From NCBI GenBank assembly GCA_041946735.1, contig JBHGAY010000017.1, forward strand, positions 56,009 through 120,008: a stretch of 64,000 bases of DNA, read 5' to 3'. The first letter of the stretch is position 1. Each line of letters starts with the position of its first letter. The translations under genes and the position numbers were made by a program. Of the stretch, positions 47,101 to 64,000 are shown one piece after another. Origin of the DNA: Candidatus Eiseniibacteriota bacterium (GTDB lineage Bacteria > Eisenbacteria > RBG-16-71-46 > CAIMUX01 > VGJL01). The notes under the pieces were generated by a model. The model searched no databases, had not been told where the DNA came from, and worked only from the letters and a program-made list of their open reading frames with translations.

Positions 47101-49193
47101 GGAGCGGCAAGTCCGGCAAGGGCGCGCCGAAGCGGACGAAGAAGGTCGAGCGCGAAGCCGCTGCCGTCGAGCCGTCCGGATCGGGCAACGGGATCGCGCC
47201 GGGAATCGACCTCCTGTCGGCGTACCGGACGATGCTCCTGACCCGCCGGCTCGACGAGAAGATGCTGATCCTCCTGAAGCAGGGGAAGAGCTTCTTCCAC
47301 ATCGGGGCCAGCGGTCACGAAGCGTCGCAAATCGCGGCTGCGGCGCACATGGTCCCCGAGAAGGACTGGTCCTACCCGTACTATCGCGACCTCGCCTTCT
47401 GCCTGCAGATCGGGATGACCGCCGAGGAGGTGCTGCTCTCCTTCCTGGCGCGCGAGGAGGATCCCAACAGCGGAGGCCGGCAGATGCCGGCGCACTACGG
47501 CCACCGCCGCCTGCGGATCGTCTCGCAGTCGAGTCCGACCGGCTCGCAGTTCCTGCAAGCGGTCGGCTGCGCGCTCGGGTCGAAGCTCGAAGGGACCGAC
47601 GAGGTCGTCTACGTCTCGGCGGGCGAGGGGACGACGAGCCAGGGGGATTTCCACGAGGCGCTGAACTGGGCGAGCCGCGAGAAGCTTCCGGTCCTCTTCC
47701 ACGTCGAGGACAACAAGTACGCGATCAGCGTCCACATCTCGCAGCAGACGACCGCAACGATCTACGACCTCTGTGGCGGATACGTGGGCCTGCGCCGCTA
47801 CGCGGTCGACGGAACCGACCTGCTCGCCTGCGACCGGGTGATGCAGGAGGCGATCGCCGGATGCCGGGCGGGCGCGGGGCCTGCCTTGGTCGTCGCCGAC
47901 GTCGTCCGCCTGCTTCCCCACTCCTCGAGCGACAACCAGGCGAAGTACCGCTCGAAGGAGGAGCTGGAGGCGGACCGCTCCCGCGATCCGCTCCCGCGCC
48001 TCGAGTCGCTTCTGCTCGAGCGAGGCCTCGCGACGGCCGGCGATCTCGAGCGCCTCCGCGACGAGACGCGGCGGAAGGTCGACGAAGCGGCCGACTGGGC
48101 CGACTCGCGCCCGCATCCCGATCCCCGGACGGCCACGCTGCACGTCTGGTCGCATCCGGTCTACGAGCCTCCCGAAGGGGCGCGCGAGACGCCGCACGGC
48201 ACCGGGGACACGATCGTCCTCGTCGATGCGATCAACCACGCCCTCGTCGAGGAGATGGCGCGCAACCCGAAGATCGTCGTTTACGGGGAGGACGTCGAGG
48301 ACTACAAGGGGGGCGTCTTCACGGCGACCACCGGCCTCTCGGTCCGCTACGGGCGCGACCGGGTCTTCAACTCTCCGCTCGCTGAGTCGAGCATCGTCGG
48401 CACGGCGGTCGGGCTCGCGTCTCGCGGCTTCCGCCCGGTCGTCGAGATCCAGTTCGGCGACTACATCTGGCCGGCGATGAACCAGCTTCGCAACGAGCTG
48501 GCGACCATGCGCTACCGCTCCGCCGGCCACTGGAGCGCCCCGGTCGTCGTCCGCGTCCCGGTCGGCGGCTACATCCACGGCGCCTTGTACCATTCGCAGA
48601 ACATAGAGGCGACGTTCGCGCATTTCCCGGGCCTGTACGTTACCTATCCCTCGAACGCGTCCGACGCGAAGGGGCTGCTGAAGAGCGCGATTCGCGGCGA
48701 CGATCCGGTCCTCTTCCTGGAACACAAGGGACTGTACCGGCAGGTCTACGCGGCGGCGCCCGAGCCGGACGCCGAGTTCCTCCTCCCGTTCGGGAAGGCG
48801 CGCGTGGCGCGGCAGGGGAGCGACATTACGATCGTCACCTACGGCGCGCTCGTGAAGCGCTCGCTGGACGCCGCCTCCAAGATGGAGGCGCAGGGGGTCT
48901 CGGTCGAGGTGATCGACCTGCGGACACTGATCCCCTGGGATCGCGAAACGGTCCTCGCCAGCGTCCGCAAGACCGGGCGCCTGCTGGTCGCCCATGAGGA
49001 CATCGTGACCGGTGGGTTCGGAGCGGAAGTGGCGGCGGCGGTGGCGCGCGAGGGCTTCGAGTTCCTCGATGCTCCGATCCTCCGCGTGGGCGCGGCCGAT
49101 TCCCCGATCCCGTTCAACTGGTTCCTCGAAGCGGAGGTGCTCCCGCAGGAATCGCACCTCCTCGCCGCGCTTCAGGATCTGGCGGAGTACTGA
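47088..49193 (+). CDS. Fused E1 alpha/beta 2-oxoacid dehydrogenase (probably branched-chain type)
   Basis: GEG...N TPP motif, HSSSD, GEDV...GGVF, EIQFGDY and HSQ motifs. Confidence 0.9.
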   Translation: MAQLRSGKSGKGAPKRTKKVEREAAAVEPSGSGNGIAPGIDLLSAYRTMLLTRRLDEKMLILLKQGKSFFHIGASGHEASQIAAAAHMVPEKDWSYPYYRDLAFCLQIGMTAEEVLLSFLAREEDPNSGGRQMPAHYGHRRLRIVSQSSPTGSQFLQAVGCALGSKLEGTDEVVYVSAGEGTTSQGDFHEALNWASREKLPVLFHVEDNKYAISVHISQQTTATIYDLCGGYVGLRRYAVDGTDLLACDRVMQEAIAGCRAGAGPALVVADVVRLLPHSSSDNQAKYRSKEELEADRSRDPLPRLESLLLERGLATAGDLERLRDETRRKVDEAADWADSRPHPDPRTATLHVWSHPVYEPPEGARETPHGTGDTIVLVDAINHALVEEMARNPKIVVYGEDVEDYKGGVFTATTGLSVRYGRDRVFNSPLAESSIVGTAVGLASRGFRPVVEIQFGDYIWPAMNQLRNELATMRYRSAGHWSAPVVVRVPVGGYIHGALYHSQNIEATFAHFPGLYVTYPSNASDAKGLLKSAIRGDDPVLFLEHKGLYRQVYAAAPEPDAEFLLPFGKARVARQGSDITIVTYGALVKRSLDAASKMEAQGVSVEVIDLRTLIPWDRETVLASVRKTGRLLVAHEDIVTGGFGAEVAAAVAREGFEFLDAPILRVGAADSPIPFNWFLEAEVLPQESHLLAALQDLAEY

Positions 49194-55627: not shown

Positions 55628-55778
55628 AGGCCCGACAGCCGCCGCACGAGACGCAGCGCCTCCGAGGCGCAACGCTTCGACTTTCGGCGCCCGGAGAGAA
55701 AGAGAACTCCGCCGGAGGGAAGCATCCGGCGGAGTGACATCGAGGTCGAATCCGAAAGATCGGTTGCCGGGAAGCAGG

Positions 55779-56636
55779 CTATCGATACAGTCCCCGCACC
55801 TGGCCCCAGCTCACGTGGGACGTTGCAGTGGGCGAGCAGGGATTCGGATCGCAGTCATATTCCCACGGATTAGGCTCACCGCCCATAGCGATGCAGGTAT
55901 AGTCGTACAGCACCTGGCAGGAGCCGTCGTCGAAGCAACAAGCAACATCCTCATCCTGCGGGGGTATGCCACACCCATCTTCCCCGTTCAGGACGAAGAT
56001 CGTCTGCGAGTCGGGGAATCCGATGTCGCTCACGCCTACCGGTTCCGAGATGCCACAGTCCGGCGCGGCGATGTAAGCATCCTGGAAGGCGCCGGCATCG
56101 TTGGCGCCCGGGTAGAAGGAAACGAGGTCTGCCTCACCGGACGGGGCGTCGATAGCGACGACGAGGTCCGTCGCCTCACCGTCTTGGACGCAGAGGTAGC
56201 CGACCTGAACGTTGATCGTCGAGCCGACGTCGTTCGGGGTGAGGTCGATGCTGGTACGCCACACTTCTCTCAGGTTGGCGAAGAGGAACGGCGCGCCGTT
56301 GTCGATCTCGAAGAGGAAAAGGGTAACGCTCATGTTGCCCGAGAGGTACGAGACGCCGAAGTCCACGCTCTCCACCTGGAAGCTTTCGAGCCCGTGGTCG
56401 TCGTAGAGAAAGAAGCGGCGGAGAAACCAGTTCTGAGTCGTGTACGACCCGGCAACGCCGCAGGCGACCTGCGTGTCGCCGATCGTCGTGATGTCGTAGT
56501 TCTGGTAGACCTGCAGTCTGTCCTGCGGCGTCGTTTCGACCGAATACGACGGGTGATCCACCGTCAGAAACTCCGCGGCGCTTGCCCCGGACACGAGGAA
56601 CAGGATCCCCAGGGCAAGCAGGAACAGCGGCCTCAT
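55779..56636 (-). CDS. Secreted hypothetical protein (paralog A) with a Cys-rich module and SWGQVRGLYR tail
   Basis: Signal peptide; core nearly colinear with 56978..57715. Confidence 0.8.
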   Translation of the reverse strand: MRPLFLLALGILFLVSGASAAEFLTVDHPSYSVETTPQDRLQVYQNYDITTIGDTQVACGVAGSYTTQNWFLRRFFLYDDHGLESFQVESVDFGVSYLSGNMSVTLFLFEIDNGAPFLFANLREVWRTSIDLTPNDVGSTINVQVGYLCVQDGEATDLVVAIDAPSGEADLVSFYPGANDAGAFQDAYIAAPDCGISEPVGVSDIGFPDSQTIFVLNGEDGCGIPPQDEDVACCFDDGSCQVLYDYTCIAMGGEPNPWEYDCDPNPCSPTATSHVSWGQVRGLYR

Positions 56637-56977
56637 GGGCGGCTCCTGATTCTCGGGTCTCCGATCGGTCTGGACCGCTCGCCGTCGCACCCGGGGTACA
56701 CATTCGGTGAGGCGTCTTTGGCGCTCGATCGGAGAATCCCGGACCGGAAATGAAGGAACAGGATCGCGGCGAAGACCTCTCGGCCTCCGTCCTCTCCTTG
56801 GGAACGCTGACATTCTACGCGCTTCGCCGGGCCTTGTCTCTTCCGCTGGGGCGAGGGCGCTCGTTGGCGACGGCGGAGAGATGCGAAGAGGGGACCGGTC
56901 GCCCGGTCCCCTCGCAACTCGGTTTGGCTCCGCCGGCTGGGAAGTAAGGCCGGCCTTGCCGATTGCCGATCGGTTCC

Positions 56978-57715
56978 CTACCGGAACAGCCCCCGGACGG
57001 CCCCCCACGTCGTGGGCGTCGTCGCGACCGGCGGCGGCGGTGGGCCTCCTATGCCCGACTCTCCATTGACGACGAAGATGGTCTGAGAGTCAGGAAAGCC
57101 GATGTCGCTAACTGCCATCGGCTCGGGGACGTCGCAGTTCGCGGCCGCGATGTACGCATCCTGGAAGGCGCCCGCGTCATTAGCAGCCGGGTAGAAGGAG
57201 ACCAAGTTCGGTTCCCCGGACGGCGCCTCGATCGCGACGACCAGATCCTGGCCGATGCCATCGTACATCTCCGCCGAGAGCGGGACGTTGACGAGGAAGC
57301 CCACATCGTTCGGAGTCAGGTCTACCGACTCCCTGGTGATCTCCGTCATGTTGTCGAATCGGAACTCGGATCCGTTCGGGATCTGGAAGACGACGATGTC
57401 GACCGTCATGTCCCCGGTCAGAAAGGAGACGCCGAAGTCGATGCTCTGGACGATGATTCCGGGGTCCAGACCGTGATCCTCGTGGAGGTAGAAGCGTCGA
57501 AGGAACCAGTTCTGGGTCGTGTACGATCCGGCAACGCCGCAGGCGACCTGCGTGTCGCCGATCGTCGTGATGTCGTAGTTCTGATAGACCTGTACTGGTT
57601 CGCGCTGTGGCGGGTCGACCGCATAGCTCGGATGGTCGACCGTCAGTAACTCCGCGGCGCTCGCCCCGGAGGTTACCAGCAGCACTCCGAGGGCGAGAAG
57701 TACATACGGCCTCAT
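56978..57715 (-). CDS. Secreted hypothetical protein (paralog B) with a Pro linker and TWGAVRGLFR tail
   Basis: Signal peptide; shares VYQNYDITTIGDTQVACGVAGSYTTQNWFLRRF with paralog A; AGGAG RBS. Confidence 0.8.
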   Translation of the reverse strand: MRPYVLLALGVLLVTSGASAAELLTVDHPSYAVDPPQREPVQVYQNYDITTIGDTQVACGVAGSYTTQNWFLRRFYLHEDHGLDPGIIVQSIDFGVSFLTGDMTVDIVVFQIPNGSEFRFDNMTEITRESVDLTPNDVGFLVNVPLSAEMYDGIGQDLVVAIEAPSGEPNLVSFYPAANDAGAFQDAYIAAANCDVPEPMAVSDIGFPDSQTIFVVNGESGIGGPPPPPVATTPTTWGAVRGLFR

Positions 57716-57969
57716 GGCATCACTCCTGTGGTCGGGTCGCATGCGAGGATGTGGAGGTCCGGTCGGATGCTCGAGCTGCGCTCTCCTTCTGCCTCACTGC
57801 TCCAGGCACGACCCGCATTCGCACGTCGGAGAACTCGACCGGGTGGGCCCAGCGCCACGTCAATCCCGGTCGGATGGACGCCACCCATTCTACTCCTCCG
57901 CCCGAAACCCGTCGACGAGTGCAGGCCGGCTCCTTCCCGCCCCGCCGACCGTGACCGCAACACGGGTGA

Positions 57970-57998
57970 TTGACGCCGCCGGGGGATCGGAATACCAT
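57970..57998 (+). promoter_or_regulatory. Sigma70-type promoter for the tRNA/aaRS cluster
   Basis: TTGACG-17 nt-TACCAT. Confidence 0.6.
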
Positions 57999-58120
57999 TC
58001 TGTTGCTCGGTCTTCGATGACTTGCGAGGGCAAAGCGACAGCATGCGGCGGACGCACCGGGCTTTCCGCTGTTCGTTTCGTGCGCCTTCCCTGGGCCATC
58101 GCCCGAGTTCGAGTTTCGAT

Positions 58121-58370
58121 GCGCCCGTAGTTCAATGGTCAAGTCGTGGCGGTTTCGTCGCAAATGGTTCCGTTTGGGGCTCCCGTCCGCGTTGCGCACG
58201 GCGGAAGACGCCGGCGCTGAATAGCATCCTAGGTCGCTATTCAAACAAGAGCTGTGTGCCGCAAGGACGGATGGCTCCTGGGAAGTACGGCGCCGAGCGA
58301 TAAGCCTCCAGGCAAAGAACAGTGGACCTATAATCCACGAATGCGGGTTCGATTCCCGTCGGGCGTACCA
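58121..58370 (+). tRNA. tRNA with anticodon UAU (nominally Ile/AUA), interrupted in the D-loop by ~175 nt
   Basis: Acceptor GCGCCCG/CGGGCGT, discriminator A and encoded CCA; U8A9; D-stem GTTC (58130)/GAAC (58317); anticodon arm GTGGA-CCTATAA-TCCAC; 4-nt variable loop; T-arm GCGGG-TTCGATT-CCCGT; A15-U48 compatible. Confidence 0.85.
58140..58315 (+). ncRNA. Structured intervening sequence in the tRNA D-loop (possible intron, class uncertain)
   Basis: Hairpins 58194-58217 and 58218-58243; long-range pairings CCGTCC/GGACGG and GCTGTG/TACGGC. Boundaries are ambiguous by a few nt. Confidence 0.6.
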
Positions 58371-58414
58371 GGTTCCGCGGCCACCTCAAGAGTGCGGAGG
58401 CGCGCGACGACGTC

Positions 58415-59482
58415 ATGGACGACCCGGCCGCCATCGAGACATCGCAGGACGCTTATGTCGACGTGTCCGAGAGCTACGGACGAATCGCCTGCCTCCAGCG
58501 CCTCGTCCCGCTGATCCTCAGAACGAACGAGCACACCTACCTCTCCACCCCGGAACGCGACGATCCGCTGGGCGCCACGTGGCTGGAACTGGGATTGCGC
58601 GGTCTCGAGAATCTGCACGAGCGCTTCCGCCCGAAGGTCCGAAGAGCCGCCGTCATCGGCACCGGCAGTGGCCTCGACGCGATCGGGATCGCGGAGATCT
58701 TCTCGCCCGAATCGATCGTCGCCTCGGACATCCATCCCCGGGCCCTGGAGGCGGCACGCTGGAACGTCGCGGGCTACCTGCGTCCCGAGGTCCGGTGCGA
58801 GCTGCTCCGAAGTGATCTCTTCCGCGGGTACTCTTCAGACACCACCTTCGATCTCGTCTTCGAGAACCTTCCGAACGTTCCGGAGGACGAGGCGACGGGC
58901 GCGAGCCTCCTCGAAGGGATTCGCAGCTCGAGCTGCTACAACGCGTCGGCCTACGTGGCGGATCCGCTCGTCGATCGTCATCTCCTGACGCTGCACTACA
59001 ACTGCCTTCTCGAGGCGCGCGACCATCTGACTCCCGATGGCTGGGTCGTCTCGCTGATCGGCGGCCGGATCCCGTGGGCGGTCGTCGTGGAGACATTCCG
59101 CAAGGCGGGCTTCGGCGCGCGCGTCCTCGAGTTCGGGATCAAGACGCAGACCGAGCCCGGCATCGTCCTGGAAGGCTACGCGCGCGCGGAGGAGGATGGC
59201 TCTCCGCCGTTCCTGTACTACTACCCGCCCGAGTCCTGCCTGAATGCTCTCCCACGCGGGCGGGATGGACGCGGCGATGGCGCCGACCCAGCCGGCACGG
59301 TCGAGGAGGGGAACGCCGCCCTCGATGCGTTTCGCGTCAGCGCCCGCGAAGCGCTCGCGCTCCACCGCAGAGGAAAGAAGGTCTGCCACACCGTCTACGT
59401 CGTGGGGGGGCACGCCCTGGGGGGCCGCGTCGCTGGAGGGACGCCGGCAGCACGCGCGACACAGGCGCCGCCTGCGCAATGA
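58415..59482 (+). CDS. SAM methyltransferase resembling methionine S-methyltransferase (MmtN/MMT-like)
   Basis: Motif I VIGTGSG, SDIHP, SDL, ENLPNV, IGGRIP and C-terminal VSAREAL...CHTVYV. Family assignment is from recalled motif order. Confidence 0.65.
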   Translation: MDDPAAIETSQDAYVDVSESYGRIACLQRLVPLILRTNEHTYLSTPERDDPLGATWLELGLRGLENLHERFRPKVRRAAVIGTGSGLDAIGIAEIFSPESIVASDIHPRALEAARWNVAGYLRPEVRCELLRSDLFRGYSSDTTFDLVFENLPNVPEDEATGASLLEGIRSSSCYNASAYVADPLVDRHLLTLHYNCLLEARDHLTPDGWVVSLIGGRIPWAVVVETFRKAGFGARVLEFGIKTQTEPGIVLEGYARAEEDGSPPFLYYYPPESCLNALPRGRDGRGDGADPAGTVEEGNAALDAFRVSAREALALHRRGKKVCHTVYVVGGHALGGRVAGGTPAARATQAPPAQ

Positions 59483-60207
59483 CCGCGCCCGAACCGTTCA
59501 CCGATCCCGAAGCGATCGACCGGATGGAGGCGGAGCACAGGCCGCTCTGGTCGGCGTTCGTCCGCAGCTTCTCCCCCCTACTCTTTCCCGGCGCCCGTGT
59601 GCTGGATTTCGGCTGCAGCGGAGGGGGACTGCTCCGCCTGCTGTTCGAACGGCAGACGGAAGGGGCCATCCCGGAGATCGCGCTCGCCGCCGGCATCGAC
59701 GTCGACGAGCCGGCGATGAGAACCGTCCTTGCCCGCGCTGCCGGTCGTCCTCCACGGGATCTCCCGATCGTCTTCACAACGGGGCGCCTCGCCGCCTTCC
59801 CGGAGCAGTTCGACCTGGTCGTCTCGCACGAGGTGGTCTATCTCCTTCCGGATCTCCGCGAGACATTTGCGGAGATCCGAGCGGCGCTCCGCGATCAAGG
59901 GCACTTCTGCTTCACGACCGGGTGCCACACGGACAATCCGCTCTTCGCGCGATGGAGGCGCTCGCTCGAGGCCGAAGGCGTCGCCGTCCATGCGCGTGCC
60001 GCGGACGCGTACGAGCGGGCGTTGCGCGATGCCGGATTCATCGAGATCCGAGACGACCGGCTGCGCCTGCGCGAAGAGGAGTATGCCGCCTGGGCCGCAG
60101 CCCGTGGCACGGCGCAACCGAATCCCGCCTGGTTCGCGAGCTCGGCCGAGGAGCGCGACTATTACGTCCGAACCGGCAAGCTGCTTCTCACCGCGCAGAG
60201 GGGGTGA
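59479..60207 (+). CDS. Class I SAM-dependent methyltransferase
   Basis: VLDFGCSGG, GIDV and FDLVVSHEVVYLL motifs; ATGA-coupled to the upstream gene. Confidence 0.85.
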   Translation: MTAPEPFTDPEAIDRMEAEHRPLWSAFVRSFSPLLFPGARVLDFGCSGGGLLRLLFERQTEGAIPEIALAAGIDVDEPAMRTVLARAAGRPPRDLPIVFTTGRLAAFPEQFDLVVSHEVVYLLPDLRETFAEIRAALRDQGHFCFTTGCHTDNPLFARWRRSLEAEGVAVHARAADAYERALRDAGFIEIRDDRLRLREEEYAAWAAARGTAQPNPAWFASSAEERDYYVRTGKLLLTAQRG

Positions 60208-62393
60208 TGAGGATGGGCGGGTACGATCCGGCGGCGATCGAGCCCAAGTGGCAGGAGCGCTGGCGGGAGAGACGCACCTTCGAGAGCCGGCGCGACCCGG
60301 CGCGCCCGAAATACTACGTGTACAATCCAGCGCCTTACGTCACCGGCGCGCTGCACATGGGACATGTCCGCAACTACGCCTGCGGGGACTTCGTGGCGAA
60401 GGTCCACCGTCTGAAGGGGGACGCGGTCCTCTACACGATCGGCTTCGACGCGTTCGGCCTGCCGACGGAGATGGCGGCGATCCGCAACTCCGTCGCGCCG
60501 GAGCAGTGGACCGCGGACTGCCTCGAGCAAATGCGGCGGCAGCTCTCCGCTCTCGGATGCGGCTTCGACTGGTCGCGCTCCTTCCTGACCTGCGAGCCGA
60601 AGTACTACCGGTGGACGCAATGGATCTTCCTGCAGCTCCATGAGAGAGGGCTGATCTACAGCACGGTCGGGACGACCCTATGGTGTCCGGAGTGCGACAC
60701 CTCGCTCGCGCGCGCGCAGGCGGAGGAGGGGCGCTGCTGGATCTGCGGCTCGACGGTCGAGCGCCGCCGGGTGCGCGAGTGGATGCTGCGCGTCTCCCCT
60801 TACCTGGGGCGCCTGCTGCGCGGCCTCGAGAAGACCACCGACCGCAGCGGTCTCGCAGAGCAGGGACAGGGCAACCTGATCGGCCGCCAGGACGGTTTCG
60901 CCGTGCAGCTCCGCGTCGAGGGGGTGAGGGAGCCGCTCACTGCGTTTCTCCCCGACGGCGCCTCGTGGGCGGCGCCGTGCGTGATCGCCGTCGACGCGCG
61001 GGACGAGGAAACGCTGGCCGCTCTCGCCGCGGGCGGGGGCGGGGGTGAGGAGGGAGCGCCGATCGCCCCGGCGCTCGCCGATGCGGTGCTCGCCGCCCTG
61101 CCGGGCGCCCGGCTGACCGGCTGGATCGCGGTCGAGGAGCGGACGGGGAGGCGTCTGCCCGTCGTCGTCGCCCCGCTCTCCGATCCGGCCTTTCTCGATC
61201 AGCCGCTCGTCGTGCCCCTCGCGCAGGCGGCCGGCGAGGGCGCCGCGCCACGGTCGCCAGCGCCGGGCTTCCCGCCCATGACCGTCTACCGGCAGAAGGA
61301 CTTCTCGATCTCGCGCCAGCGGCTCTGGGGCACGCCGATCCCGATCGTCCTTTGCGAGACGTGCGGCGAGGTGCCGGTGCCGGTCGAGGAGCTTCCGGTC
61401 GTGGCGCCCGGGCTCACGATCGATCCGGGCACCGGCCGCCTGCGCCGCGAAGGGGATTCCTGGGACCTCCGGCGATGCCCGCGCTGCGGAGCGCCGGCGC
61501 GGCTCGACCCGCAGGTGATGGACTGCCACATGGACTCCATCTGGCATCCGTTCCGCCCATGCGCGCTCGAATCGACCGAGTTCCTCTTCGATCCCGACGA
61601 GGTCCTCTACTGGATGCCGGCGGACATCATCCAGTTCGGCCGCGACGTGATTCCCTTCATGCTCGATCTGCGCTTCTTCTCCTACTTCCTGCACGATCTC
61701 GGGCTCGTTCCGTTCGAGGAGTTCTGCACGGAGGTGCTGGCGCACGGGCTGATCCTTCACGAGGGACGGAAGATGAGCAAGCACCTCGGGAACGCCGTCA
61801 CGCCCGAGGAGGCGATCGAGCGGTTCGGCGCCGACGCGCTGCGCTTCTACGCCCTCGCGCACGAGGAGCCGAAGAGCGACTGCCGCTGGTCGGAGGAGGG
61901 GATCGATCGCTACCGCGCGCTCCTCGCAACCTTCCATGGCCTCGTCGCATCGGCTCCGGCGGTGGAACGACCGGCCCCGCCACCCGCGACGAGGGACCGG
62001 GAGCCGGGGGCGCGCCGCAGCAAATACGCGAACGTATTCCTGAAGAAAGTCGCCCGAGAGATCGAGGGGCTCGCTTCGTACGTGGAGGAGACGCGGTACG
62101 ACCGCTACGCGAGCGGCGTCGCCCGGATGATCTCCTCGATGGAGTTCTTCGCGACGAACCATCTCGCCCGCGAGCGCGATCCTCACGTTTCGCGCCTGTG
62201 GCGATCGATCCTCGAAGACGCCGTGGCGTATCTCGCTCCCATCGCCCCGCACCTGGCCGAGGAGTGCTGGGAGATGCTGGGGAAGGAGGACTCGATCTTC
62301 TCCGCCGCGCGCCCGCCGGCGGTCACCGCACAGGCGATCCGGGACTTGCTCGAGGACTCGCGCCACATCACGACCCAGGGAAGGGACGCATGA
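60207..62393 (+). CDS. Divergent leucyl-tRNA synthetase paralog (class Ia)
   Basis: IEPKWQERW, LHMGH, FDAFGLP, YYRWTQWIF, SRQRLWGTPIP, KMSK and PIAPHLAEE motifs; ~728 aa. Confidence 0.9.
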   Translation: MRMGGYDPAAIEPKWQERWRERRTFESRRDPARPKYYVYNPAPYVTGALHMGHVRNYACGDFVAKVHRLKGDAVLYTIGFDAFGLPTEMAAIRNSVAPEQWTADCLEQMRRQLSALGCGFDWSRSFLTCEPKYYRWTQWIFLQLHERGLIYSTVGTTLWCPECDTSLARAQAEEGRCWICGSTVERRRVREWMLRVSPYLGRLLRGLEKTTDRSGLAEQGQGNLIGRQDGFAVQLRVEGVREPLTAFLPDGASWAAPCVIAVDARDEETLAALAAGGGGGEEGAPIAPALADAVLAALPGARLTGWIAVEERTGRRLPVVVAPLSDPAFLDQPLVVPLAQAAGEGAAPRSPAPGFPPMTVYRQKDFSISRQRLWGTPIPIVLCETCGEVPVPVEELPVVAPGLTIDPGTGRLRREGDSWDLRRCPRCGAPARLDPQVMDCHMDSIWHPFRPCALESTEFLFDPDEVLYWMPADIIQFGRDVIPFMLDLRFFSYFLHDLGLVPFEEFCTEVLAHGLILHEGRKMSKHLGNAVTPEEAIERFGADALRFYALAHEEPKSDCRWSEEGIDRYRALLATFHGLVASAPAVERPAPPPATRDREPGARRSKYANVFLKKVAREIEGLASYVEETRYDRYASGVARMISSMEFFATNHLARERDPHVSRLWRSILEDAVAYLAPIAPHLAEECWEMLGKEDSIFSAARPPAVTAQAIRDLLEDSRHITTQGRDA

Positions 62394-62409: not shown

Positions 62410-63222
62410 ATGACGCAGACCGTATTCGATCGATTTCGATCCGCCTTGGCGTCCGGAATCGAACGGCTGGAACGCGCCCGTCGGAGCGGCGAGCCGCGCG
62501 CGCTCTGGCGGGAGGCTCTCGCGCTCGAGCACGTGATCCAGTGCGACCTCCTCTCCCTTCGAGAGGAAGAGGAGGTGATCGGCACGCTCGAGCCCGAGCG
62601 AGTCGCCCTCTGTCGCGACATCTTCTGCGTCCTCGAGACGCAGATCGAGAGCAGCTTCGCCGCGATGGCGCTGTCCGGCGGCGACGCGGTCCTCGCGCGG
62701 ATCGACGGGATCACCGAGAACTACCTGGTCCGCTACGAGGAGCTGGCGCGAAAGGAGATCGCGCTCGCCGGGATGACGGGGCGCGATCGCGTTCTGTTCA
62801 TCGGGAGCGGCCCGCTGCCGATCACCGCGATCGAGTATCACCGTCAGACGGGGTGCGAGGTGGACTGCGTGGACTTCTCGCCGCAGGCGATCGACACCTC
62901 GCACGAAGTGCTAGGGCGCCTGCGGCTCGATTCGGCCATCCACCCGCAACTTCTCCGCGGCGAGAACGTCCCCGCCGGCGGCTGGACGGTCGTCCTGGTC
63001 GGTGTGCTCGCCCGTCCGAAGAGGGAGATCTTCGAGAATCTCGCGAGGGTGTGCCCGGACGGCTGCCGCGTTCTCGCGCGGACCACGTTCGGCCTCCGCG
63101 GCCTGATCTACGAACCGATGGGGTGGGATCCCGCGAGCCTCGGCGGCTTCCGGATGACCGGCACGAACGAGGCGCGAGCGGACCAGATCATCTCGGCGAT
63201 CGGCTACGTGCTGGGGCGTTGA
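62410..63222 (+). CDS. Nicotianamine synthase-like aminocarboxypropyl transferase
   Basis: Y..RYEELARKE, VLFIGSGPLPITAI and RTTFGLRGLIYEP motifs. Confidence 0.8.
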   Translation: MTQTVFDRFRSALASGIERLERARRSGEPRALWREALALEHVIQCDLLSLREEEEVIGTLEPERVALCRDIFCVLETQIESSFAAMALSGGDAVLARIDGITENYLVRYEELARKEIALAGMTGRDRVLFIGSGPLPITAIEYHRQTGCEVDCVDFSPQAIDTSHEVLGRLRLDSAIHPQLLRGENVPAGGWTVVLVGVLARPKREIFENLARVCPDGCRVLARTTFGLRGLIYEPMGWDPASLGGFRMTGTNEARADQIISAIGYVLGR

Positions 63223-63235
63223 GGCGGGCGGGGCG

Positions 63236-63802
63236 TCAGAGGTCCAGCTCGTCGCTGACCCCCTGCATCGCGACCAGCGCAATCCCCGCGAACTCGGCCG
63301 TATCGATGCCGATCTCCTCGCACTCCCGGATCGTCTCCCGGTTCACGCTCGAGGCGAACCGGTCGTCCTTGATCCGCTTCGCGACCGACTTCGCTTTCAC
63401 GGAGGCGAGCTTCTTGTCCGGCAGGATCAAGGCGGTCGAGACGATGAGGCCCGTGATCGTCTCCCCGGCGGCGAGGGCGTGATCGAGACGGCTCTGGCGC
63501 GGTTCGGTCGTCGATAGCCGGTTGTGCCGGCGGATGGCGGCAACGACCTCCGGCTCCACCCCGTTCGCCTCGAGGATCGGCGCGCTCCGGCTGCCGTGAA
63601 CGGCAGGATCGGCCTGCGTGATCTCGATGTCGATGTCGTGCAGGAGTCCGGCGATTCCCCACACGTCCGGGTCCTCGCCGAGGCGCGCCGCGAGAGCGCG
63701 GAGCACCGCCTCGGACGCGAGGCTGTGTTTGAGGATTCTCGGGTCGGCGACGTGCTGCCGGAGTAGCGCCAGCGCCTTCTCACGATCGATGCCCGCGGAC
63801 AT
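63236..63802 (-). CDS. HDIG/HD-domain hydrolase
   Basis: KHSLASE, GLLHDID, RRHN and FASSVNRE motifs. Confidence 0.85.
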   Translation of the reverse strand: MSAGIDREKALALLRQHVADPRILKHSLASEAVLRALAARLGEDPDVWGIAGLLHDIDIEITQADPAVHGSRSAPILEANGVEPEVVAAIRRHNRLSTTEPRQSRLDHALAAGETITGLIVSTALILPDKKLASVKAKSVAKRIKDDRFASSVNRETIRECEEIGIDTAEFAGIALVAMQGVSDELDL

Positions 63803-64000
63803 GCGTTCCTCCCGGCTGGAAAATCGTCCGCGAAGGATCGTACCAGACGGGCAGCCGTCGCGGAAGCGGGCGGGCGAACCGCATGGCTATCGCTGCGCGA
63901 CGATTCGCATCCCGAGAGTGCGCAGCAGTCCGCCGCCCAAATCCCAGCGAAGCTCGTCGGGGGCTTGCCCACTGACCCGCAGGCGACCCTCGTGGATCAG

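Follow-up and report, generated by a model that had tools for sequence, protein, structure and literature searches.

A rare ATA codon in the linkers of secreted paralogs of an Eisenbacteria genome and its probable link to an adjacent cassette with an interrupted tRNA(UAU) gene and a LeuRS-like synthetase

Do the single ATA codons of two neighbouring genes for secreted proteins have a function, and is that function connected with the tRNA gene beside them? The locus that raises this question lies in a genome of Candidatus Eiseniibacteriota bacterium (the source genome, G000; 4.89 Mb, 72 contigs, 94.8% complete), in a stretch of 64,000 nucleotides (C9:56009–120008) that is called the window here and to which all coordinates refer unless a contig is named. 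Two tandem minus-strand genes, paralogs A and B, encode secreted proteins and contain one ATA codon each; divergently from them, a tRNA gene with the anticodon UAU is followed by four enzyme genes, one of which encodes a protein resembling leucyl-tRNA synthetase (LeuRS). An earlier note on this DNA proposed that the two codons may be targets of site-specific recoding or of tRNA-dependent translational control. From comparative sequence analysis, we conclude that the ATA codons of the secreted paralogs are probably kept by selection as the cognate codon of the cassette tRNA and serviced by it. A functional link is the best explanation because the retention of the codon, its repetition in a second genome, its absence elsewhere, and the presence of a cognate tRNA with a private synthetase converge on it.

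Paralog A (55779–56636, minus strand) was recognized from its open reading frame (ORF), translation, and family alignment as a 285-aa secreted jelly-roll (lectin-like) protein; it has a signal peptide, contains a Cys-rich insert, and ends in the tail ...SWGQVRGLYR. Paralog B (56978–57715, minus strand), recognized from its ORF and translation, is a 245-aa secreted jelly-roll protein with the tail ...TWGAVRGLFR. In both, the signal peptide is followed by a domain of ~200 residues, which a short linker joins to a tail with the ending WGxVRGL[YF]R; no Pfam or NCBIfam match was obtained for either. The predicted structure of paralog B (pLDDT 91.8) comprises a beta-sandwich (residues 22–220), a flexible linker (residues 221–236) modelled with low confidence, and a short C-terminal helix; it weakly matches lectin-like or ligand-binding jelly-rolls (the Cwp84 lectin-like domain and the ligand-binding domain [LBD] of EphA2). 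The ATA of paralog A is codon 224 (55965–55967 in plus-strand numbering; GGC ATA CCC), and that of paralog B is codon 222 (57050–57052; GGC ATA GGA), directly after the last beta-strand. Both codons sit in the linker between the lectin-like domain and the C-terminal sorting tail. A recount of the Ile codons gave 12 ATC, one ATA, and no ATT in paralog A and 13 ATC, one ATA, and no ATT in paralog B, which matches the counts of the earlier note exactly. Its statement that the two codons occupy an equivalent position holds in that GGC-ATA occurs in both genes, a few codons past the end of the shared domain (FV[VL]NG), but the equivalence is approximate: the linker has indels, MAFFT sets the two codons in adjacent columns, and equivalent here means within two or three columns.

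The source genome has five paralogs of this family: A, B, one on contig C25, and two on C71. The linker ATA is kept in three of the five (A, B, and C25), each time as the only ATA of the gene. The linker of the C25 paralog reads TGC ATA, and in the C71 copies Ile is either absent from this place or encoded by ATT at a shifted position. In the maximum-likelihood tree, C25 is basal, followed by (A, B) as sister to the C71 group (clade support, 100/100; the A–B pairing is weak). Because the tree places C25 basal, the ATA appears ancestral to the paralog clade, and a single ancestral ATA followed by a single loss is the simplest history. Between A, B, and C25, synonymous sites are near saturation; the numbers of identical codons and their random expectations were 79 and 73.7 for A–C25, 89 and 81.4 for A–B, and 90 and 74.5 for B–C25. 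Other rare codons were kept between the deep lineages in 28 of 254 cases at a relative use below 0.10, in 2 of 42 below 0.05, and in none of 9 below 0.03. None of the 25 eligible columns, defined by an amino acid common to A, B, and C25 and a rare codon in at least one of them, holds a rare codon in all three. Among ATA codons of the source genome that are aligned with Ile in orthologs of similar divergence, none of the eight was still ATA in G004 (the second cassette-bearing genome, from another genus of the same family) or G005 (no cassette). With retention above all rare-codon controls and above this ortholog baseline, the linker ATA looks selected. A contig of sequencing run X4 contained a diverged homolog with the linker GGC TGC ATA GTA; this homolog is not independent support because the same run holds pieces identical to the window. 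The contigs of four DNA runs were otherwise mostly identical or paralogous pieces.

The C25 paralog (C25:23893–24624) is divergent from an ordinary tRNA-Arg(CCG) gene (C25:23435–23508), at a distance of ~390 nt. We considered nearness to any tRNA as the cause of the retained codon and rejected it, treating this proximity as a coincidence.

The same pattern was found in G004. A tandem array of seven secreted paralogs (~238 aa) starts ~290 nt after the last gene of its cassette, the nicotianamine synthase (NAS)-like gene, and all seven have a linker ATA, 8–11 codons before the Trp of the tail. The linkers of the array are hypervariable, differing in length and sequence in every copy, and the codons around ATA read TGC ATA CTA, GGC ATA GTT, TGC ATA GTT (twice), GGC ATA TGC, CAC ATA GTC, and TGC ATA GAC. 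The linker ATA is the sole ATA within the last 240 codons in six of the seven genes. It is also the only rare codon found in all seven: 35 of the 52 rare-codon columns are private and only two reach five genes, in a comparison that included a copy with synonymous sites near saturation. The array and the G000 family are remote homologs belonging to different subfamilies (hhalign 92%, E 5e-7, 25% identity, shared tail included), and common descent of the codon would therefore need very long retention.

Outside these two groups, the linker codon was different. The six family members of G004 that do not adjoin the cassette have no linker ATA, and one of them has ATC. Cassette-free relatives of the G004 family (G005, G001, G002, G003, G034, G014, G012, and G028) and of the G000 family (G013, G023, G046, G027, G105, and G011) have ATC, ATT, or no linker Ile; where cassette-free family members have a linker Ile, it is encoded by ATC (G034, G014, G028, and G011) or ATT (G001), and never by ATA. 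L168, a distant family member in G000 itself, has ATC in the linker twice. Scans of genomes and of metagenome contigs for close orthologs returned two loci each, which were distant (42% and 32% identity) and had no linker Ile. The expectation that ATA is kept only beside the cassette agreed with the whole G004 array (7/7) and with the cassette-free family members, but it failed for the C25 paralog, which is remote from the cassette, and for one tail gene of G002.

We then looked at ATA before sorting tails in general. The source genome has 69 tail-bearing ORFs, and a specific DNA pattern for the tail, with 0–1 control matches, found 92 in G004, 44 in G005, 40 in G003, 24 in G001, and 20 in G002. 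In the tail genes of G000, 5 of the 30 Ile codons within the interval from −16 to −9 relative to the Trp are ATA, compared with 14 of 799 farther upstream (Fisher p ~4e-4, for an interval picked after seeing the data). Rare codons overall were not enriched before the tail in this genome (0.092 in the last 30 codons and 0.114 elsewhere), and in G004 tail genes outside the array, none of the 20 linker Ile codons is ATA. A linker ATA occurs in 12 of 160 tail genes of the two cassette genomes and in 1 of 95 tail genes of four cassette-free genomes (Fisher p 0.035, the genes not being independent). Three of the G000 genes with this feature lie outside the paralog family, with tail Trp coordinates C23:142325 (476-aa ORF), C23:154481 (336 aa), and C34:23725 (279 aa); their ATA codons stand 10–14 codons before the tail in the contexts GGC ATA CCC, GGG ATA GGA, and ACC ATA TAC, and they may be further targets or chance occurrences. 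ATA before all sorting tails as a general rule was rejected, since the G004 signal is carried wholly by the array and the signal is nearly absent in the four cassette-free genomes. Between the linker with its ATA and the tail, paralog A has the Cys-rich insert (55800–55960; ...CDPNPC...), and the same module stands before the tail in numerous other, unrelated ORFs with this tail in both G000 and G004, as well as in a homolog in G023.

The tRNA gene between the paralogs and the enzyme genes is interrupted. That a UAU tRNA lies divergently upstream of the paralogs, as the earlier note held, is correct, but only once an insert of 177 nt is allowed for; no tRNA was reported in the window by ARAGORN (0) or by Rfam at the gathering score, and the Rfam tRNA model RF00005 gave 20.1 bits against a gathering cutoff of 29. 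The 5′ part (58121–58139, plus strand) contains the 5′ strand of the acceptor stem, positions 8–9, the 5′ strand of the D-stem, and the start of the D-loop. The D-loop insert (58140–58316, ~177 nt, plus strand) forms a long irregular hairpin and belongs to no Rfam family. The 3′ part (58317–58370, plus strand) contains the 3′ strand of the D-stem, the anticodon arm with the anticodon TAT at 58329–58331, the T arm, the 3′ strand of the acceptor stem, A73, and an encoded CCA. When the insert was deleted in silico, ARAGORN called tRNA-Ile(tat) in both G000 and G004; the G004 counterpart has a normal CUUAUAA loop and an insert of ~240 nt. On the alignment of the two genes, 41 of 42 cells of the cloverleaf are paired, compared with 33–48% in slid controls, and there are four compensatory pairs, at acceptor 4–69, D-stem 11–24, and anticodon stem 27–43 and 28–42. 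Because pairing is conserved with compensatory changes, selection acts on the gene as a tRNA, the insert notwithstanding. In the phylum comparison set of 206 genomes, which is identical to the class genome set, the 3′ half of tRNA(UAU) was found in two.

A permissive Rfam search of 57900–58500 returned a sub-threshold tRNA and two chance-level matches, and no intron or ribozyme family. The fold z-scores of the tRNA plus insert, −2.0 in G000 and −1.2 in G004, are not decisive, and the folded ends lie a few bases off the tRNA ends. The inserts of G000 and G004 (L013 ~1270–1502) have little sequence in common beyond a short TCG[CG][AT]AATG. The insert ends pair into a long stem, and an RNase III-type excision leaving a two-piece tRNA is conceivable.

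The cassette has the identical order in G000 and G004: tRNA(UAU), MTase1, MTase2, the LeuRS-like synthetase gene, and the NAS-like gene. MTase1 (58415–59482, plus strand) starts 44 nt after the tRNA gene and encodes an S-adenosylmethionine (SAM)-dependent methyltransferase with weak HemK/PrmC-like matches, all below curated cutoffs. MTase2 (59479–60207, plus strand), whose start overlaps the MTase1 stop, encodes a class I SAM methyltransferase (Methyltransf_23), and the start of the LeuRS-like gene (60207–62393, plus strand; ~728 aa) overlaps the end of MTase2. The NAS-like gene (62410–63222, plus strand) encodes a 270-aa protein resembling the SAM aminobutyryl-transferase CntL, with matches to PF03059 (53.7 bits), thermonicotianamine synthase (E 3e-18), and the aminobutanoyltransferase CntL (E 3e-7). 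The four enzyme genes and tRNA(UAU) apparently form one operon. MTase1 was found in 2 of the 206 phylum genomes, G000 and G004, and its family is rare, with 24 clusters at E ≤ 1e-5 among 5.8 billion proteins. At E ≤ 1e-60, only G004 among five family relatives has a match to the LeuRS-like synthetase. Homologs of the LeuRS-like enzyme and of MTase1 were found on equally long contigs three more times (30086, 377476, and 8519 nt). P0049, a member of the secreted family with the linker ...GGIIPTE..., and P0008, a homolog of MTase1, both come from a 24392-nt Logan contig and may be a third case of co-location.

By its sequence, the leuS of the cassette is not a housekeeping LeuRS. Both cassette copies score below the TIGR00396 cutoff (the G000 copy 404 bits, cutoff 548, without matching the part of the model that covers the editing domain), and canonical LeuRS genes above this cutoff are present elsewhere in G002, G003, G004, and G005. 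Among 5.8 billion proteins, the enzyme falls into a clade of 13 clusters that is clearly set apart from the rest (45–61% identity, 535–977 bits), made up of 12 clusters of 688–762 aa and one 411-aa fragment. The editing domain PF13603 is absent from all 13 clusters and present in every canonical LeuRS listed below them (≤431 bits). Set against five canonical LeuRS, that of E. coli among them, the clade retains HIGH and shows KMSKH; the editing motifs TTRPDT and GTG...HDQRD and the whole C-terminal domain, which we take to hold the tRNA elbow, are missing. Clade-invariant substitutions occur in four motifs conserved in LeuRS: SMLPYPSG (E. coli 39–46) became NPAPY[VIL]TG, W-Y499 became W-H, DIY527IGG became D[QI]IQFG, and EHAIMH537LLY became RD-xIPF[LM]L. 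The E. coli positions 40, 41, 499, 527, and 537 presumably line the leucine pocket. The best PDB matches of the LeuRS-like enzyme are LeuRS structures (1h3n and 3zgz), over its N-terminal 245–304 residues. In the 94.8% complete source genome, a search for a canonical leuS above the TIGR00396 cutoff found none, and the cassette copy is the only LeuRS-like gene; either the housekeeping leuS lies in the unassembled part or the situation is something stranger.

These features suggest a mechanism. The LeuRS-like enzyme, which has no editing site and no C-terminal domain and has altered pocket motifs, would charge tRNA(UAU), and the D-loop insert would probably serve as its handle and could make up for the contacts that went with the C-terminal domain. 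The anticodon is not known to be read by bacterial LeuRS; therefore, a LeuRS derivative could serve a tRNA of any anticodon. Once charged, tRNA(UAU) would read ATA at the domain/tail junction of the adjacent secreted proteins in competition with the lysidine-bearing tRNA-Ile2, and the outcome would be either a special residue at the junction or a synthesis of the tail that depends on tRNA(UAU). Given the link, recoding and tRNA-dependent control are about equally likely. The two SAM methyltransferases and the NAS-like enzyme could make an amino acid, or equally modify the tRNA. If they made an amino acid, the locus would represent a natural expansion of the genetic code at a sense codon: the NAS-like enzyme and the methyltransferases would build a SAM-derived non-standard amino acid, which the LeuRS-like enzyme would load and which would be inserted at the linker ATA, with other ATA codons mostly read as Ile. 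We put this forward tentatively, as a version of the link that is possible but doubtful.

How ATA is used in the rest of the genome bears directly on these proposals. Genes of G000 were predicted with a self-trained ORF scorer (2760 genes), and the codon counts are approximate because this gene set covers 78% of the genome. ATA makes up 551 of 1,269,626 codons (0.43 per 1000; 0.98% of Ile codons); it is rare, as had been expected in the earlier note, and it is the rarest Ile codon of G000. It is dispersed, with at least one ATA in 417 of the 2760 genes, and its frequency increases as the GC content at third codon positions (GC3) of the gene drops. Paralogs A and B have a GC3 of 0.81–0.83 (17th–24th percentile), and because 21.5% of the genes in this class carry ATA, one ATA in a gene is unremarkable. 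ATA sites lie in locally lower GC3 (0.773 compared with a gene mean of 0.813), and no codon preferentially adjoins ATA genome-wide (GGC precedes 3.4% of ATA and 3.1% of ATC). In a comparison of three genomes, the share of ATA among Ile codons was lowest in G000 (0.92%), higher in G005 (1.19%), and highest in G004 (2.0%). The earlier note had also pointed to an ATA at 48603 in an E1-like gene as apparently ordinary Ile; this codon is real and in frame.

The ordinary route for reading ATA also appears to be in place. G000 has 47 tRNA genes, three of them with the anticodon CAU, and one of these three lies directly upstream of tilS on contig C6; from this adjacency and by elimination, it was taken as tRNA-Ile2. 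TilS of G000 scores 169 bits, above the TIGR02432 cutoff, and tilS was found in G004 and G005 as well. Alignment of G000 genes with ortholog-like counterparts in two relatives (199 pairs) placed the ATA codons opposite eight Ile, two Val, one Leu, two Arg, and one Gln. Since the aligned residues are mostly Ile (8/14) and tilS and tRNA(CAU) are present, bulk ATA is most simply read as Ile by the standard lysidine route. The isoleucyl-tRNA synthetase (IleRS) of G000 (C56:80921–84457; L068 1051–4587) is of the eukaryote-like type 2, MupA/MupB-like, with 8c8w as the best PDB match, and the G005 IleRS is likewise type 2. A test modelled on Mycoplasma mobile, which looks for Arg in place of Trp at the E. 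coli W905 position of type-1 IleRS, was inapplicable to the type-2 enzyme of G000.

Several of these observations weigh against a link between the linker ATA and the cassette. The standard decoder, tilS with tRNA(CAU), is present, and bulk ATA meaning Ile speaks against global recoding and against a strict switch. The codon is not confined to the secreted paralogs (551 codons in 417 genes), its usage across G000, G004, and G005 tracks GC3 and not the presence of the cassette, and the cassette genes contain no ATA codon at all. The G000 tRNA(UAU) has C33 in place of the near-universal U33. The C25 paralog keeps its ATA far from the cassette, three G000 tail genes outside the paralog family have a linker ATA, and one linker ATA sits in the cassette-free G002. 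The paralogs are not independent samples and amount to about two cassette-adjacent groups at the lineage level; should an ancestral locus have held both elements, the adjacency in G000 and G004 would not be independent either. A recurrence of the cassette block elsewhere is suggested indirectly, from contigs of equal length, and the roles assigned to the changed LeuRS residues and to the C-terminal domain are presumed ones. Taken against this background, the proposal that the paralogs are targets of recoding or tRNA-dependent control gained comparative support for its link to the UAU tRNA, from the G004 array and the private synthetase; a strict switch and a global recoding are disfavoured.

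A rival explanation is that ATA is an ordinary Ile codon in a chance neighbourhood. ATA would then have arisen once per group and persisted in a low-constraint, slightly AT-richer linker, read by tRNA-Ile2, and the cassette would be unrelated, for example a tRNA-dependent or metallophore-type small-molecule pathway that stays nearby by inherited synteny. Besides TilS and tRNA(CAU), the dispersal of ATA in locally lower GC3 (0.773 and 0.813 as above), the GC3 of the paralogs at the 17th–24th percentile, their shared ancestry, the ATA of C25 away from the cassette, and the single linker ATA of a cassette-free genome fit this explanation. So does the established fact that ATA can change synonymously only by transversion, and NAS-like enzymes are known from metallophore pathways, in keeping with the CntL match. 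The other Ile codons of these genes, however, are ATC, with ATT in a few genes of the array and two additional ATA in one, and general AT-richness therefore does not explain the linker ATA. Its retention exceeds every rare-codon control and the ortholog baseline of 0/8, and it stays constant while the flanking linker is hypervariable. Chance would also have to account for an odd neighbouring tRNA that bears exactly the cognate anticodon in both genomes and for two adjacent groups from different subfamilies, which would need very long retention. We regard an ordinary Ile codon as an unlikely explanation.

ATA might instead act without the cassette, as a slow codon before the sorting tail that times folding or targeting through the scarce tRNA-Ile2, with the UAU tRNA uninvolved. 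Position-specific conserved rare codons are a known phenomenon, the codon lies at the domain/linker boundary in the model of paralog B, and the ATA enrichment in G000 tail genes (5/30 compared with 14/799) includes three genes outside the family. But the enrichment before the tail is confined to ATA and does not extend to rare codons as a class (0.092 and 0.114); a linker ATA occurs in just 1 of 95 cassette-free tail genes and in 0 of 20 Ile codons of G004 non-array tails, and a pause would leave unexplained why ATA-bearing groups adjoin the only tRNA(UAU) genes of the phylum. A pause of this kind therefore seems to us distinctly improbable. Several cases read ATAG (ATA GGA, ATA GAG, and ATA GTA/GTT), as they might if the letters belonged to a motif in the DNA or RNA, for example a recombination or nuclease site or an RNA structure. 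Such a nucleotide-level signal is very hard to credit: there is no extended motif, the preceding codons are GGC, TGC, GGG, ACC, and CAC, the following ones start with G, C, or T, ATA has no codon bias before it genome-wide, and only the in-frame triplet is constant.

Some further features of the locus and the assembly were recorded. Promoter-like sites lie upstream of paralog A (56812–56840, minus strand), paralog B (57887–57915, minus strand), and tRNA(UAU) (57970–57998, plus strand), the latter two back to back between the two genes; these are consensus matches only, three in the region against 0.3 expected. Paralog A is followed by a terminator-like hairpin (55706–55735). Four of the five paralogs have the rare Arg codon AGG at codon 2 (ATG AGG; 56630–56636 and 57709–57715 in the window, and the C71 paralogs), which may reflect a constraint on translation initiation. 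After the cassette, an HD-domain-like gene (63236–63802, minus strand) lies on the opposite strand, and the contig stops at window position 64000; in G004, the side that matches this gene is taken by the ATA-bearing array. The G000 assembly has a tRNA-SeC(tca) gene, but tRNA-Ile(GAU), tRNA-Ala(UGC), tRNA-Cys, and tRNA-Thr(GGU) were not found; tRNA-Ile(GAU) and tRNA-Ala(UGC) are probably in an unassembled rRNA operon.

Known systems resemble the locus in part. The pyrrolysine system (pylT–pylS–pylBCD) is likewise a compact cassette with a structurally unusual dedicated tRNA, its own synthetase, and accessory enzymes; a small number of particular genes retain its cognate codon, at single positions. 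Here too, tRNA(UAU) and the LeuRS-like gene stand in one block in G000 and G004, and the one product would charge the other. The present case differs in that the codon is the sense codon ATA, whose ordinary decoder is still present, and not a stop codon; the synthetase is class Ia and derived from LeuRS, the accessory enzymes are two methyltransferases and a NAS-like protein, and the tRNA has a long D-loop insert. Compared with canonical LeuRS (TIGR00396; PDB 1h3n and 3zgz), the cassette enzyme has the same class Ia catalytic core with HIGH and KMSK, but it falls below the cutoff, lacks PF13603 and the C-terminal domain, and carries the clade-invariant substitutions. To our knowledge, private tRNA/synthetase pairs have so far been known only for stop codons (selenocysteine and pyrrolysine).

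A model for tRNA-dependent translational control is bldA, the tRNA-Leu(UAA) for TTA in Streptomyces (PMC2000904): in a high-GC genome, the rarest codon of its family occurs in particular non-housekeeping genes, and a specific tRNA gene matches it. In our case as well, the codon is the rarest of its family and stands at fixed positions (3/5 in G000 and 7/7 in G004). The bldA tRNA is the sole one for its codon, has scattered targets, and has no private synthetase, whereas here TilS with tRNA(CAU) also reads ATA and the targets adjoin the cassette. AGA is another example of rare-codon control (PMC4836200). In M. mobile, a bacterial tRNA-Ile with the anticodon UAU reads AUA without TilS, and some tilS-bearing bacteria also have a tRNA-Ile(TAT) gene (PMC3575796). 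The M. mobile tRNA is an ordinary one charged by the housekeeping IleRS in the absence of tilS; here, tilS is present, the IleRS is type 2, and a LeuRS-like enzyme accompanies the tRNA gene, which is interrupted. In archaea and some eukaryotes, too, tRNA genes can have intervening sequences outside the anticodon loop, but these are cut at a bulge-helix-bulge by a splicing endonuclease, and the present insert, in a bacterium, may be retained. Among related work, PMC8629427 and a preprint deal with screens for alternative genetic codes and with ACA reassignment, respectively. Searches of open-access literature turned up no description of the cassette, of bacterial tRNA genes interrupted in the D-loop, or of control specific to ATA; as far as that literature goes, the gene set of the cassette is previously undescribed.

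If the link between the linker ATA and the cassette is true, a few neighbouring genes of a bacterium would contain, at one fixed position, a rare sense codon that is served by a private tRNA/synthetase pair. It would add a bacterial tRNA gene with a long D-loop insert and, with 13 clusters among 5.8 billion proteins, a new clade of synthetases derived from LeuRS. On the conservative reading, in which ATA is a codon for tRNA-dependent control, it would give a new instance of the bldA logic beyond the actinomycetes. For the Eisenbacteria, the link may also offer a handle on how their undescribed C-terminal sorting tail is made or controlled.

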